Virus record (IMG/VR): IMGVR_UViG_2880378312_000006
Length of the DNA: 64,000 nt
Source of the DNA: a virus
Lineage: Duplodnaviria; Heunggongvirae; Uroviricota; Caudoviricetes
Direction: 5' to 3' (one strand)
Part shown: positions 30,001 to 36,000 of the stretch, one piece after another
How positions within the stretch are numbered: position 1 is the stretch's first letter
Layout: every line of letters starts with the position of its first letter
Made by a program: the position numbers

Positions 30001-33000
30001 AATCCGCTTATTGAAAAACAGATTGAATGCCTGGTAAATCAACTCAGGCAATCAGGGTTATTAAAAACTCATTCAGAGTTGAGGCTCACAGAATCAGCAT
30101 TCGACGATAAATTAAATAATGTCCTTTATAATGGCATTATTGATTTTAATCGTTCTGTTGGTCGCCGCGGCCCTGCTGGTGTTTCCTTATAATTACCAGT
30201 CAATCCAGAGTGGACCGTGTTCAGCGTAAATATAACTGTACACATCCAGATTATATTTGTGGTCTGTTAAGAACAGGCCGCAAATACATGCCGAAGCTTC
30301 CAGTGCAGCGGCTCTGTTACTGAATAACCATGTAGCAACATTCCAGCGTTTTTCTGCATCCCAGTCTTTCTCAAGGCCTGATACCATGAAGAAACCGTTA
30401 GTGTTGCCATCAAATAATTCTGTTTCCAAATTTTTAAGCAATGCCTGATGGACTCTTGCCAGGTATTCCGCCGGAATTTCGCCACGAATTCTGATGAGAT
30501 TGTCATAAACAAACATGTTCCCCGCATATGGCGATTTTTCTTTCTTGTTTTTTAAACCAGCATCATGAGCAAACTGATCAATTTCTTCTTCCGTTGGTTT
30601 CGTATTGATGTTTTGCGCTGTCGTTTCTGCAATTTTATTTGCCACACTCTCTGAGTCGTGTTTATTTATAGACGCACAGAAATACAATCCGGTAAACGCA
30701 TCGCGCACATTACGAGCCATATTATCAGTGTCTTTTTTCGTTACCGATTCCAATTCAAGTTCGTTCAGACGATGACGAAGTGTGTGTGCTGCAATCTCCT
30801 GGATTGAAGGAGGTAAATCTTTAAATTCCATCGTCAACCTCATCAGTCAGTGTTTCTGGCTAACCAGCGACGCGCGCCAGCTTCAGTTTTAAACGTTTTG
30901 CTTTTGGTATACGTCATCGCGGTGAACGTACCGTCCTGGTTGGGGAACACGCCACATACCAGAGATTCGTTGTTGCCAAGATTGAGCGTATCCATGTTGA
31001 CCTCATTTCCCCTTAACGCCGGGGTAGCGGAACAAAAACCTGCTGCATAGTTATTAAAGTTGAACCCTGCCGTCATGTTCTTACGCCTCGGGCTGGCTAC
31101 TTAACCCCTGACCACTGCCTGGTAACTCGAAGTATTGCCCTGCATTCTGTGGGGCGGGGTGAGGGAATGAATGAAGTTTAGAAAAACGAACATTTAAGGT
31201 CAATGTTTTTTTATCAAAACATTTTAAGCAGGCAGCTGTTACGCCATCACTACGATGGCATACAGTTAATCAAATAGATGAGGTTGGTTAAATATCTTGT
31301 TGAATTTTAAAGCATACTCCCAATATGCAAGATAGATCATCCAGCATAATTGAAGGGTAGCGAGGATTCGTGGGGACTAAAAGAATATCCGGCCCTTCTA
31401 TCTCCAGTTTGCGAATGACAGGCGTTGTGGTCCCTTTGGGTAAGGCAAGGACAATATTTCCTGGTTGTACGATTCGATCGGGATCAACAAAAACTGTTGA
31501 ACCATTTGGGATGGAAACTCCACCACCAGATGTCGACATACTGTCACTCTCTAGAACAACAGCAAAGGTATTGGCCGGGATTTCTCCGACAAGCTGCACA
31601 CAAGAGGTTATTGAGGAATTTTTCATATAATCACTCCAGCTTGCTGCCTGCTGAAGTGATAGTAGCGGAACCGTTTTTATCGGCGGTAAAGATAGATCAA
31701 GCGAATCACCTGTATTTAACTCTCCTCCATTAAGAAGCCAATTTTCGTTTACTTTCAATATCTTTGCCAGTGAACTTATGTAACGCGAGGACGGCGCTCC
31801 TCCACCGTTCATCCATTGACTTACGGAGCCTTTTGATGCGCCAGTGGCATTGACAAGGTCTTTGCCTTTCAAGTTTAGCGCATGCATACGTTGGGTTATG
31901 CGTTCAGATATTGTTTGCTTGTTCATGTTTTGATTTTAAAACACAGATGGTTTTGTTTCTTGACTTTCTTTGGTTTTGATTATTAAACTTTTGGCGTTCA
32001 GTTTTATGGAGCGACTCATGAAAAAATCAGAAGTATTAGGCTATTTTGGCGGAGTTGTTAAAACAGCCGCCGCTCTAGGAACGTCAAAAACCACAGTCAG
32101 CATGTGGGGGGAAGACGTTCCGTGGAAATGGGCGTTGCTAATTCAGGCAGTCACTGCCGGGGCGCTCAAATATGAGTTACACATACCGACGGTTGTCATT
32201 CCCGATTCTGATCATAATCCGCCTTCTAACCAAGGGGGGATTCATGAAAATCAAGCATGAACACATCCGCATGGCGATGAATGCCTGGGCGCGTCCTGAT
32301 GGCGAAAAAGTTCCGGCAGCTGGAATAACCCAGGCTTATTTTGAGTTGGGTATGACGTTTCCTGAACTGTACGACGACAGCCATCCGGAAGCCCTGGCTC
32401 GCAATACCCAGAAAATTTTCCGCTGGATAGAGAAAGACACCCCTGATGCAGTTGAAAAAATGCAGGCTCTGTTACCGGCGATCGAAAAGGCAATGCCGCC
32501 TCTGCTGGTGGCCCGTATGCGCAGTCACAGCTCTGAATATTACCGTGAGATCGTCGAACGGAGGGATCGGCTGGTGAAAGATGTGGATGATTTTGTCGCA
32601 GCGGCGATCGCCTGGGGCACCCTGACTAACAGTGGGGGTCAGCCTGGTAATGCTGTTGTCGTGCATTGACCAACAATATTCATGCCGGATTTCTTCCGGA
32701 TGTTCGAGGGTAAAGTTCGGTATCAGAAGAGGTGAGTATGGCTAATGCCTGGCTCAGATTGTGGCATGACATGCCAAATGACCCCAAGTGGCGAACGATT
32801 GCCAGGGTATCAGGACAGCCAATCGCAACAGTGATGGCAGTGTATATCCATCTTCTGGTGAGCGCGTCACGAAATGTCACGACATGTCACGGCGTGTCAC
32901 TACGTGGTCACATTGATGTCACGACGGAAGATTTAGCAAGTGCGCTTGATGTGACGGAAGACGTAATTGATTCAATTTTGCATGCAATGCAGGGGCGGGT

Positions 33001-36000
33001 TCTGGATGGTGACCTTATTTCCGGATGGGAAAAACGTCAGGTGCTGAAAGAGGACAATGGTAACGTTTCGCAAACGGCAAAATCCCCGGCAGAGCGCAAG
33101 AGAGCGCAGCGGGAGCGGGAAAAGCTGCGGAAACATAATGCTGATTGTCACGATGAGTCACGACGTGTCACGCATCTGTCACGACAAGTCACGACAGATA
33201 AAGATACAGATAAAGATACAGATACAGAATTAAACCCCACACATAACGCGCGCGAGAGTATTCCGACCAGTGAGTCGAATGGTGCGCCGTTGCAGACAGC
33301 CGAACCTGAATACCTGGACGGCCTGAGCGAACCGATCGGGAAATTTTCGATGACTACTGTCTGGCAGCCGTCGCCGGATTTTCGACAACGGGCAGCAGTG
33401 TGGGGTATGGCTCTGCCTGAGCCGGAATTTACACCTGCTGAGCTTGCCGCATTCCGGGATTACTGGATGGCGGAGGGGAAGGTTTTCACGCAGGTTCAGT
33501 GGGAGCAGAAATTTGCCCGCCACGTGCAGCACGTCAGGGCACAGGTAAAACCAGTCAGCAAGGGGGGAAGCCATGCAGCATCAGGTGGCACGGCATCACG
33601 GGCAGTTCAGGAAATCCGGGCTGCACGCGAACAGTGGGAACGTGACAACGGATTTATCAGCAACGGAAACGGCCTGGAAGCTGTGGGAGCTCATGGGGGA
33701 GGTGTATTCGAACCGCTGGACTCAGAAGAACGGGGCCGCACCTTCGAAGCTCTGGATTGCCCAGATTGGTGCGATGACTGAACAGCAAATCCGTCTGGTG
33801 TGCCGTCAGTGCATGGACCGCTGCCGGGCGGGTGAAACGTGGCCCCCGGACCTGGCTGAGTTTGTTGCGCTGATTTCGGAGAGTGGGGCAAATCCATTTG
33901 GTCTTACGGTGGATGCCGTGATGGAAGAGTACCGGCGCTGGCGCAATGAATCCTGGCGATACGACGGGAGTGATAAATACCCGTGGCCACAGCCTGTGCT
34001 GTACCACATCTGCCTCGAAATGCGTACCAGAGGGATTGAGCGCCAGATGACGCAAGGTGAGTTAAAACGACTTGCGGAACGGCAACTGACGAAATGGGCA
34101 AAGCATGTTGGTAACGGGATGAGTGTTCCGCCAGTGCGACGACAACTGGAAGGGGCGAAACACCCGCAAGGGCCAACGCCAATTGAACGGCTGAAACAGG
34201 AATACGAACGCCGGAAGGCAGCTGGTTTTATTTGAATCTGAGAAACGATTTTGTCGGAGGAAATATTAATGGAAACCGTATTTGACGCACTGAAAGCACT
34301 GAAAAAAGCCTCTTCACAGGTAGTGGCATCGCGCCTTGGAATCAGCCGCGAAGATGCTGTCAACGAACTGTGGAAACTGAAGCGCCGTGGTGAAGCGGAT
34401 AACAAGGGGTCGATGTGGTGGCTGACTCAGACTGGTGAAAGTGAACCAGTGTCACCGGTACCGAAAGTGACAGCGCAAATGCTGACTGAGGCGATTGAAC
34501 ATCATGGCCCACAAACGGCGGATGAGCTGGCACTGATGTTCGGGATTACCTCCCGCCGGGCGAATTCATCACTGGCCATGGCAATCAGCAAAGGGCGTCT
34601 GATTCGCGTGAATCAGGGCGGTAAATTTCGGTACTGCATACCGGGCGCTGATTTACCGGCAGAGCCGAAAGCCGCATCCATAACGGAAACGGATGGTAAA
34701 GCCTTTCCTCAGCCAGCAGGTGTTGCGTTACCAGTCGGGGAAGCGGAAACACAGGAAGAAATAAAAACGGAAAGTGTGGCGGTCACAGTGCAGTCACAGC
34801 CGTCGTTCACCAGAAAGCATCCGGATGGTCTGATTTTACCATCGCTGCATGTGGCTAACCGCGAGCTGCGCCGGGCAAAAGGTCAGGTTCAGAAGTGGGA
34901 GCGAGTCTGCGCCGCGCTGCGGGAGCTGAACAAGTGCCGGGATATTCTCCGGGATATTACCGCCACCAGAGAACAGCAGCGGTGAGTGGGTGGAAGACGT
35001 GGTGCCGGGCGGAAATCATGATACTCCGGCAGTGTGCGGGAACGATGAAGGTAAAAAGCGTTGGCGCACTTATCGGACGAACTGAAGCGGCAGTGAGAAC
35101 GAAGGCACGGGAGCTGGGCATCAGCATGATGTTACGTGGTGATTTTCACCCGTCGGCAAAATATTCTCAGCGTGATATTGAGCTGGCGCGGCAACTGCAT
35201 CAGAGAGGCATGCAAAGAAGGGAAATTGCCAGAAAATTAGGCATGCCGCTGCGCATAGTGAATAACTACGTTTATTTCGACAGGAGGGTGTCTGCGTGAA
35301 AATCCTGTATCAGGATTACGGCCCGGTGGGGCAGGTGGTTATCAGCAGTACTGTAATGGAGTTTCGGAAGCATAACCGTGTGGTGGATGCTGTGCTGTTA
35401 ACCTGTCCGGGGATATCGGCGAGTCGTGCAGGTGTGTTTATTATGAAGACGAAATTATATGGCAGTAAGGCGTGGATAAAGAAGGCGTATCGTGTAGCGT
35501 TGCAGGAGGTTAACAGTGAGTGAAATTAAAGAAATGCCGGTAGTTCGTGACGGATATGGCTACTGGACACATCCTGAATATGAAAAATTCTGTGATGGTC
35601 GGGAATATATTTCAACGGAAGAGTTTAACGCCTGGATGGAGGAAAATAATCTTCAATACGTCCTCTGCTTCAGAGATGAAGGATGTGCTGACCTTGATGC
35701 GTGTGATGCTGATATTTCTGCATGGGAACCGGAACGACCAGAGGGCGATGGCTGGTTTATTGGTTCCATTCATGATACGGAAGATGGCCCGGTTTGTGTC
35801 TGGTTGCGAAATAAGGCTGAAGCATAAAGGCGATAAACCAACTAACAACTAAATACTGAAGATTTAAATCAGAAACGATTTTTATTAAATCCTTAACCGG
35901 AGGGATTCCTGCACCCTCAGAACATCAGGAGGCCGCCCGAAAGGGCGGTAAGAAATGAAACATTATTTAGAAAAAAATTACCCACGAAAGAGCAGAACAA

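Follow-up and report, generated by a model that had tools for sequence, protein, structure and literature searches.

A putative lambda-like replication origin within the initiator gene of a lambdoid prophage: phased GTCACG arrays next to an AT-rich tandem

In phage lambda, the iterons of the replication origin are about 19 bp long, internally symmetric, bound by dimers of the O protein and set about two helical turns apart. The lambda origin has four of them and those of the Shiga toxin (Stx) phages have six; in both, the origin lies midway along the initiator gene, where an inter-domain linker is encoded, and the iteron array is followed by an AT-rich region (PMC7466680). Here we analyse a locus of comparable layout in a 64-kb stretch of DNA from a tailed phage of the Caudoviricetes (IMG/VR record IMGVR_UViG_2880378312_000006; called the window below, its numbering being used throughout). 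It is made up of two arrays of GTCAC(G) repeats and an AT-rich tandem, all contained in a single gene, an open reading frame (ORF) coding for a replication initiator:

32738-33781, plus strand: replication initiator gene (347 aa); this ORF contains both arrays and the tandem
32866-32923, plus strand: array 1, six head-to-tail GTCAC(G) units, overlapping codons 43-62
33147-33193, plus strand: array 2, the putative main iteron array, five head-to-tail exact GTCACG units in the linker-coding region
33194-33235, plus strand: AT-rich tract, candidate DNA unwinding element; a tandem of ACAGAT/AAAGAT hexamers with a purine-rich top strand

An earlier, sequence-only reading had proposed that these are initiator-binding iterons and an unwinding element lying inside the initiator gene, as in lambda. 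This core proposal is supported by the codon-independent conservation of the repeat cores, by the joint change of repeat motif and N-terminal domain (N-domain) among relatives, by the location of array 2 in the linker-coding region and by the low stability of the tandem. From such sequence comparisons we infer origin activity and binding by the initiator, and we consider it likely that the region is a lambda-like replication origin of the prophage, placed inside its own initiator gene.

The likeness to lambda extends to the order of genes, since in lambda's pR operon the helicase-loader gene P also comes after the initiator gene, and to an iteron number that varies among relatives. On the other hand, the units here are 10-11 bp long, non-symmetric, arranged head to tail and only one turn apart; a second array, ~230 bp further upstream, overlaps the coding sequence of the DNA-binding domain; and the initiator has no match to the N-domain family of lambda O and carries a DnaT-like C-terminal domain (C-domain). 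Two features that define the lambda family, dyad-symmetric iterons of ~19 bp and homology to O, are absent from this locus. In Bacillus phage SPP1, oriL is located in gene 38, whose product G38P is a replisome organizer, with iterons (AB boxes) placed by an unwinding element, and G38P binds two separate regions of the genome (PMC5737612). Iterons and an unwinding element (here a candidate one) embedded in the initiator's own gene are common to both cases, but oriR of SPP1 is far off in the genome, whereas the second array here is 230 bp upstream in the same gene; furthermore, there is no Pfam match here to the replisome-organizer N-domain, and the helicase and loader partners differ.

Iteron plasmids (pPS10, RK2, P1 and F) are comparable in their monomeric winged-helix initiators and in their direct-repeat iterons beside an unwinding element, and additional clusters of iterons serve them as auxiliary or control elements. 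However, plasmid iterons are ~17-22 bp long and lie outside rep, DnaA boxes being usual, whereas the present units are 10-11 bp long and in-gene, with no DnaA box. Phage P4 (ori/crr) depends on two groups of short repeats to which its alpha protein binds, but this protein is a primase-helicase unrelated to the initiator considered here. In addition, once the AT-rich region has opened, plasmid Rep proteins bind to one of its strands (PMC4081077). Lastly, DopC is a DnaT C-domain protein paired with a P-like partner, DopE; it has an HTH_36 N-domain and no iterons, and it is thought to be domesticated (PMC5509034). The DopC/DopE pair and YdaU/YdaV of the Rac prophage share with our locus the combination of a DnaT-like C-domain with a lambda-P-like partner, but in Rac-type YdaU the N-domain is DUF1376 and the place of GTCACG is taken by GTTCAAACA repeats.

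No published description of this origin was found in the searchable literature, a coverage that leaves out most subscription journals, so that an older description is possible. With respect to the described systems, what is new is the use of half-length iterons, head to tail and one turn apart; the conserved second array over the sequence coding for the DNA-binding domain; the match of phasing and frame at 21 bp, or seven codons; and the existence of five or more specificity classes, for which a code of a single residue is a candidate.

Phased repeats under selection as DNA

Exact GTCACG units of array 1 start at 32866, 32876, 32886 and 32918, and the gap between them is filled by GTCACT at 32896 and GTCACA at 32907, which gives six units spaced by 10, 10, 10, 11 and 11 bp. 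The five units of array 2 start at 33147, 33157, 33167, 33178 and 33188 (spacings of 10, 10, 11 and 10 bp). All units of both arrays are on the plus strand, measure 10-11 bp, share a single orientation and are without internal inverted repeat, and the starts of the two arrays are 281 bp apart. These values bear out what had been noticed from the sequence alone, i.e. two clusters of five to six GTCAC(G) repeats spaced 10-11 bp apart and separated by about 280 bp. Tandem Repeats Finder reported periods of 10 and 21 for both arrays. The 64-kb window contains 10 instances of GTCAC-N5-6-GTCAC, of which the arrays account for 9, compared with 0.19 expected from shuffles; the number of copies per 60 bp did not exceed 4 in 200 shuffled windows and reached 6 in the actual sequence, and Poisson estimates amount to 6e-6 for array 1 and 2e-4 for array 2. 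A search of the window for other phased GTCAC clusters, which might have represented an oriR-like second site, returned none but one isolated pair (GTCACAGTGCAGTCAC, 34782-34797, plus strand, within a DUF1627 gene), probably a chance occurrence. A single unit in the opposite orientation was also observed:

32951-32956, minus strand: inverted copy (GTGACG on the plus strand, CGTCAC on the minus strand), 28 bp past array 1; possible extra site

This copy codes for the 'DVT' of ALDVTE, and GTGAC is found at the equivalent position in Aeromonas and Pseudomonas relatives.

Variability was analysed in a set of close relatives (36 distinct sequences from IMG/VR and phage records). Only 2/55 core bases were variable, none of them in array 1, against 16/53 spacer bases and 82/346 positions in the rest of the N-domain. 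Core bases at third-codon positions varied in 1/18 cases, compared with 62/115 for the other third-codon positions (Fisher test: core versus spacer, 2e-4; core versus other third positions, 7e-12). Translation of the ORF confirmed that the repeats impose repeated peptide motifs on the protein (SRNVTTCHGVSLRGHIDVTT and CHDESRRVTHLSRQVTTDKDTDKDTDTE). The same six core bases are read in three frames, as VT, SR and CH/GH; since the 10-11-nt period puts cores in all three frames, selection at the peptide level cannot create the repeats. Taken together, the substitution data indicate selection on the repeats at the level of the DNA.

Variation in copy number proceeds by 21 bp at a time, i.e. two units, two helical turns and seven codons, so that the arrays can grow or shrink while helical phase and reading frame are kept. 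In phages Evi and Tritos, array 1 consists of four units, and array 2 has 3, 5, 6 or 9 units in intact Escherichia coli genes. The position of the single 11-bp spacing in array 2 shifts between relatives, the total length being kept. Two IMG/VR contigs (L049 and L056) possess one additional 10-bp GTCACG unit in array 2; the resulting frameshift truncates the initiator at aa 157. Single-unit slippage inactivates the initiator gene, whereas two-unit (21-bp) changes are tolerated.

Directly after array 2, Tandem Repeats Finder detected ACAGATAAAGAT x2.9 at 33194-33228, a region of 30-37% GC with an A-rich top strand. The 40-mer 33196-33235 is the least stable in the interval 31900-34300 (nearest-neighbour energy of -42.4 kcal/mol versus a mean of -55.8; 99.3rd percentile). 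The AT-rich tandem reported at first sight after the second array was thus found again, and no other DNA in the immunity/replication region is less stable. It codes for DKDTDKDTDTE. The number of GATA(A/C)A hexamers differs among close relatives, in frame throughout, and the same tandem is present in initiators with unrelated N-domains. Purine-rich low-complexity tracts follow array 2 family-wide (e.g. ACAGAG x4 in Stenotrophomonas), and in relatives they code for DKDKDK, DTDTDT or EEKREEEK. The tandem could be selected as DNA, as an acidic linker, or as both.

Arrays, motif classes and modular exchange across the family

Both arrays were found in distant homologues. Aeromonas phage pAEv1818 (70% identity) has arrays of four and three GTCAC units, the latter followed by a GATAAA tandem; Pseudomonas phage phi1 (68% identity) has GTCAC x4 and x4; Ralstonia phage Hennie (38% identity) has GCAACG in both arrays; and two enterobacterial metagenome relatives contain (G/T)AAACGC or GTAACG-like units, again in both. 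A scan limited to one genome per species yielded 75 loci from gamma-, beta- and alpha-proteobacteria. Phasing at 10/11 bp was scored over the initial 600 nt of each gene, using the best 5-mer: at least three phased links were present in 56/71 diverse homologues, in 1/68 flanking controls and in 0/355 codon-shuffled genes. When the two regions were searched independently in 79 diverse genes, both arrays were detected in 46, array 2 only in 22, array 1 only in 1 and neither in 10; array 2 is therefore present in 68/79 diverse homologues. The motif is identical in the two arrays in 44/46 genes, the other 2 being register artefacts. The locus had initially been described as having a duplicated array; the second array is real, but it is old and conserved, being detected together with the other in 46/79 diverse homologues and missing from most of the remaining ones, and is not a recent duplication. 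Pooling of the 79 genes with 80 IMG/VR loci gave 144 unique genes, of which 100 carry three or more units in each array and another 30 reach this number in array 2 alone.

Lineages have their own motif (GTCACG, CGAACG/CAAACG, GCAACG, GTGACG or GTAACG). GTCACG, CGAACG, GCAACG or GTGACG appears in both arrays together, and GTAACG is the motif of relatives for which only array 2 or degenerate units were detected. The motif follows the lineage and not the host: GTCACG is found from Escherichia to Stenotrophomonas, and enterobacteria also have AACGC and GTAACG types. Neighbouring genes, C-domains and helicase/loader types differ among the E. coli, Aeromonas, Pseudomonas and Ralstonia relatives, and nothing but the N-domain constantly accompanies the arrays. 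Because the same arrays occur with differing neighbours and different iterons exist within enterobacteria, it is the N-domain that the motif follows, not the host or the neighbouring genes. The peptide encoded by array 1 tracks the DNA, being NVTRGHVxVT with GTCAC, NATERGRT with AACGC and VTQGDADVTRGD with GTGAC.

The distance between array 1 and array 2 ranges from 199 to 317 bp, with no preferred helical phase across the family; a strict requirement for both arrays to be on the same face of the helix is therefore without support. In some Stenotrophomonas/Lysobacter relatives (L234, L236 and L237), the upstream array is found elsewhere, at about nt 86-118 of the gene: it is in a segment, 'NVTVGH', inserted ahead of helix 1 and not in the usual hairpin. 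Such an arrangement resembles either an independent gain or the relocation of a second array, and the different placement of the upstream array in these genes suggests that there is selection for a second array.

Some members of the family were found outside annotated genes. In Pseudomonas phage phi1 (KT887557, nt 2001-2900 of locus L166), the initiator ORF with its two GTCAC arrays is unannotated, frame 1 being open over ~300 codons, and the same holds for CP137943 (locus L249, nt 3001-3897). CP137943 and CP124671 are 51-kb circular 'plasmids' that resemble phage genomes. A search for natural 'mini-replicons' among 72,556 plasmids gave 11 hits only, namely large plasmids, chromosome-sized records and two 51-kb circular Pseudomonas elements, and was uninformative.

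The motif is also tracked by one residue of a basic helix encoded just upstream of array 2:

33086-33142, plus strand: basic helix coding region (aa 117-135, AERKRAQREREKLRK), a helix in the structural model; candidate determinant of iteron specificity

The residue that comes after the conserved Arg of this helix was compared with the iteron class in 130 unique genes:

K after the conserved Arg: GTCACG in 41/41
V after the conserved Arg: GTAACG in 10/10
T after the conserved Arg: GTGACG in 5/5
A, G or S after the conserved Arg: CGAACG / CAAACG in 52/52

On the basis of this correspondence, our hypothesis is that the residue may act as a recognition code for the iteron.

A conserved junction is located downstream of the tandem:

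33229-33262, plus strand: boundary of an exchangeable 'N-domain plus iterons' module (GAATTAAACCCCACACATAACGCGCGCGAGAG / AAAGA..TTAAACCCCACACATAACG), from alignment with Rac-SA53 ydaU

From this junction onward, the sequence is common to initiators with three unrelated N-domains. The shared DnaT-like C-half is always followed by a P-like gene and is joined to N-domains of types A, B and C, each of which has its own repeats just upstream of the junction:

Type A: GTCACG arrays
Type B, Rac YdaU-like with a DUF1376 N-domain: GTTCAAACA repeats (locus L109, nt 2385-2452)
Type C: ACCCAAAAACGG x3 and CAAAGACACCCAAA x3 (locus L157, nt 2298-2494)

The repeats of type B (Rac-type included) and of type C are probably the origins of their respective modules. 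Lambdoid phages are known to exchange the N-domain and the iterons as a module; the alignments show that here also the DNA-binding domain and its iterons are exchanged as a unit, while the C-domain matches the loader, in keeping with the classical lambdoid pattern.

The initiator, its proposed mode of action and alternative readings

In RefSeq, the product of the same frame is WP_001262402.1, a 'DnaT-like ssDNA-binding domain-containing protein', and the NCBI protein name is 'phage replisome organizer'. Its N-domain (aa 1-100) is winged-helix-like; the basic helix (aa 117-135) comes next, then a linker that is disordered (aa 138-187), and the DnaT-like C-domain occupies ~aa 195-270. An AlphaFold (AF2) model was built from 47 sequences, with a mean predicted local distance difference test score (pLDDT) of 66.8. 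In this model, the N-domain is composed of helices, a beta-hairpin (aa 47-56) and a helix-turn-helix with its wing (aa 63-96). Array 1 codes for a hairpin/loop (aa 43-62) between helix 1 and the helix-turn-helix, where the pLDDT is 71-75 versus 94-97 in the flanking segments; array 2 codes for aa 137-152, where the disordered linker begins (pLDDT 32-39), and the hexamer tandem for aa 153-164 of the same linker. Two other coding regions belong to this part of the description:

33320-33547, plus strand: coding region of the DnaT-like single-stranded DNA-binding three-helix domain
33774-34235, plus strand: lambda-P-like helicase loader gene, whose ATG overlaps the initiator stop codon

Similarity of the C-domain to DnaT is documented by the Pfam family DnaT (PF17948; aa 203-269, 3e-17), by sequence matches in the PDB (6aep/4ou6, 1e-20) and by Foldseek matches to the DnaT structures 6aeq/4ou6 (E 2e-6, TM 0.9). 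The NCBIfam DnaT equivalog model scored 94.5 bits, its cut-off being 201, and matched aa 196-271 only, so that the protein is not equivalent to full-length DnaT. The N-domain of the window protein and those of seven diverse members matched no Pfam family, that of lambda O included, and Foldseek returned winged-helix proteins only, as weak matches (E>0.8). PHROG matches of the initiator are to 'replication initiation protein' families, to 'replisome organizer' on the N-half (5.8e-6) and to 'DnaD-like helicase loader' (6e-9). The term 'O-like' given to this gene before the present analysis therefore holds for its position and presumed role but not for its sequence. The loader gene is recognized by Pfam (Phage_lambda_P, 1.3e-15), by PHROG ('P-like helicase loader') and by RefSeq ('replication protein P'). 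Upstream of the initiator gene are a CI-like repressor with an S24 peptidase domain (31288-31926, minus strand), a Cro-like gene and a YdaT/CII-like gene. The order matches that of an early rightward lambdoid operon beside the immunity region, the loader gene coming directly after the initiator gene.

A mode of action may be proposed in which the identity of the binder, melting, helicase loading and the role of array 1 are all parts that we infer from the features above. The initiator N-domains (winged helix and basic helix) would bind as monomers, head to tail, on the 10-11-bp GTCACG units, all bound units being on one face of the helix. The purine-rich, weakly paired hexamer tandem abutting the five units of array 2 would then open. 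The DnaT-like C-domains, kept beside the tandem by a flexible linker coded by the same DNA, would hold the single strand and recruit the P-like loader and host DnaB. This scheme is modelled on lambda (PMC7466680), on SPP1 oriL (PMC5737612) and on the binding of single strands by plasmid Rep proteins (PMC4081077). Array 1, ~230 bp upstream of array 2 in the region coding for the DNA-binding domain, would be bound by the same domain and is most likely an auxiliary site. Its role is most likely looping to array 2; control of firing, or a roadblock on transcription of the initiator gene, is possible.

Other explanations of the arrays were considered. The one that retains most merit, although it is unlikely, is that the arrays bind the initiator for regulation only (autorepression, titration or handcuffing) and that replication starts elsewhere in the prophage. 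Plasmids, P1 and F among them, have their copy number controlled by clusters of iterons located outside the origin. Array 1 lies early in the gene (codons 43-62), where bound protein could block RNA polymerase, and it is missing in part of the family. Array 2, however, abuts the least stable DNA of the immunity/replication region, and the exchange of 'N-domain plus array' as one module also speaks against regulation only. In the 64-kb window there is no other phased cluster save the isolated pair at 34782, and no DnaA-box or GATC cluster that would mark a different origin; near the arrays themselves, DnaA boxes and GATC clusters were likewise not found. Moreover, array 2 is placed in the same way as the origins of lambda and SPP1 (PMC7466680, PMC5737612).

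Binding of the repeats by some other protein, unrelated to the initiator N-domain, is very improbable. A host factor or a phage regulator, e.g. a YdaT/CII-like one, would have to be invoked; a YdaT-family gene does lie directly upstream in the E. coli and Aeromonas versions, but GTCACG arrays are found in Pseudomonas, Bordetella and Stenotrophomonas elements with different neighbour genes, different iterons are present within enterobacteria, and the basic-helix residue tracks the motif in the 130 genes compared. That the repeats have no function as DNA, being slippage-prone and either neutral or kept for peptides (VT, SR, CH, DKDT) that suit a loop or linker, would agree with their variable copy number and with their coding for indel-tolerant segments of low model confidence, but is hardly credible in view of the 10-11-nt period with six bases read in three frames, the near-invariance of core third-codon positions (1/18 versus 62/115 for others), the lack of phasing in all 355 codon-shuffled genes and the switch of both arrays to the same new motif in each lineage.

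Structured RNA was tried as an explanation and rejected, the folding z-scores being +1.2, -0.4, +0.6 and +1.6 (both strands, both arrays), and Rfam found nothing in 30000-36000. A promoter or terminator function was also discarded, as scans were at chance level; within the region they picked up only two weak hits, one promoter-like (33171-33144) and one a terminator-like hairpin (33257-33235), both on the minus strand.

The reading as an origin fired by its own initiator has several points against it. No replication assay, footprint or marker-frequency data were found for the family in the searchable literature. Array 1 is undetected in ~40% of the 79 diverse homologues, and the distance between the arrays has no fixed helical phase, which makes the function of array 1 less certain. 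The AT-rich tandem is short (~40 bp), and because it also codes for an acidic flexible linker, its conservation could be protein-driven. The N-domain is only weakly assigned, from the model, to a winged-helix-like fold. The joint change of iteron and N-domain, as well as the residue 'code', are confounded by shared ancestry, and this copy of the prophage may be defective for other reasons. A wider proposal can be put forward tentatively, as a possibility that we would not yet rely on: the locus might belong to a large and so far undescribed group of proteobacterial phage origins, each of them bipartite and contained in its initiator gene, with half-size iterons of 10.5 bp, one array beside a melting element in the linker and the other over the DNA-binding domain, looping between the two, specificity set largely by one or two residues of the basic helix, strength steps of 21 bp in frame and cross-firing of neighbour prophages.

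Prophage context, distribution and implications

The window, from an E. coli O157:H7 lineage, spans parts of two lambdoid prophages in tandem. Positions 1-24000 are the end of one lambdoid prophage, with cargo including the effector gene nleA and insertion sequence (IS) elements, and positions 25000-64000 hold most of a second one, with an integrase gene near 25087-26217 (minus strand) at its start. Rfam and ARAGORN located the following genes in the second prophage:

29593-29644, minus strand: DicF small RNA (sRNA)
36854-37028, plus strand: sok antitoxin RNA of a hok/sok pair
41322-41397, plus strand: tRNA-Met(CAT)
41498-41574, plus strand: tRNA-Arg(TCT)
42344-42516, plus strand: sRNA STnc100

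GATC is scarce in the window as a whole (155 sites versus 247 +/- 13 in dinucleotide-preserving shuffles). The 22-kb arrangement with tandem lambdoid prophages was found in 64 complete genomes only, of an O157:H7 lineage, next to the nleA prophage; it could not be tied to a named prophage (Sakai Sp, EDL933 CP-933) with replication measured in PMC2669165.

The module is much more widespread than this arrangement. It is present in 2125/5426 complete E. coli genomes (39%), with up to five copies per genome, among others in O157:H7 prophages carrying virulence cargo, and it is also found in phages and prophages of Pseudomonas, Bordetella, Stenotrophomonas, Ralstonia, the Burkholderia group and other bacteria. 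Many database proteins of the initiator family are labelled 'partial', which suggests that assemblies often break in the repeated initiator gene. Co-resident prophages in one E. coli genome share one iteron specificity. Since the module occurs in 39% of complete E. coli genomes and in up to five copies, cross-talk between co-resident prophages is plausible: if our interpretation is true, one induced prophage could fire the origins of neighbours having the same specificity.

Knowledge of the origin and of its specificity classes would make it possible to predict cross-activation or interference among co-resident prophages, and to annotate origins and replication modules in thousands of prophages. 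The locus would offer a clean case in which one set of bases spells both a DNA-binding site and a protein sequence, a case open to dissection through synonymous recoding, and small origin/initiator pairs of differing specificity would be usable as tools. If the proposal holds, these phages would have a simple, re-programmable code linking initiator and origin, with an origin strength that could be changed in frame by the 21-bp step.

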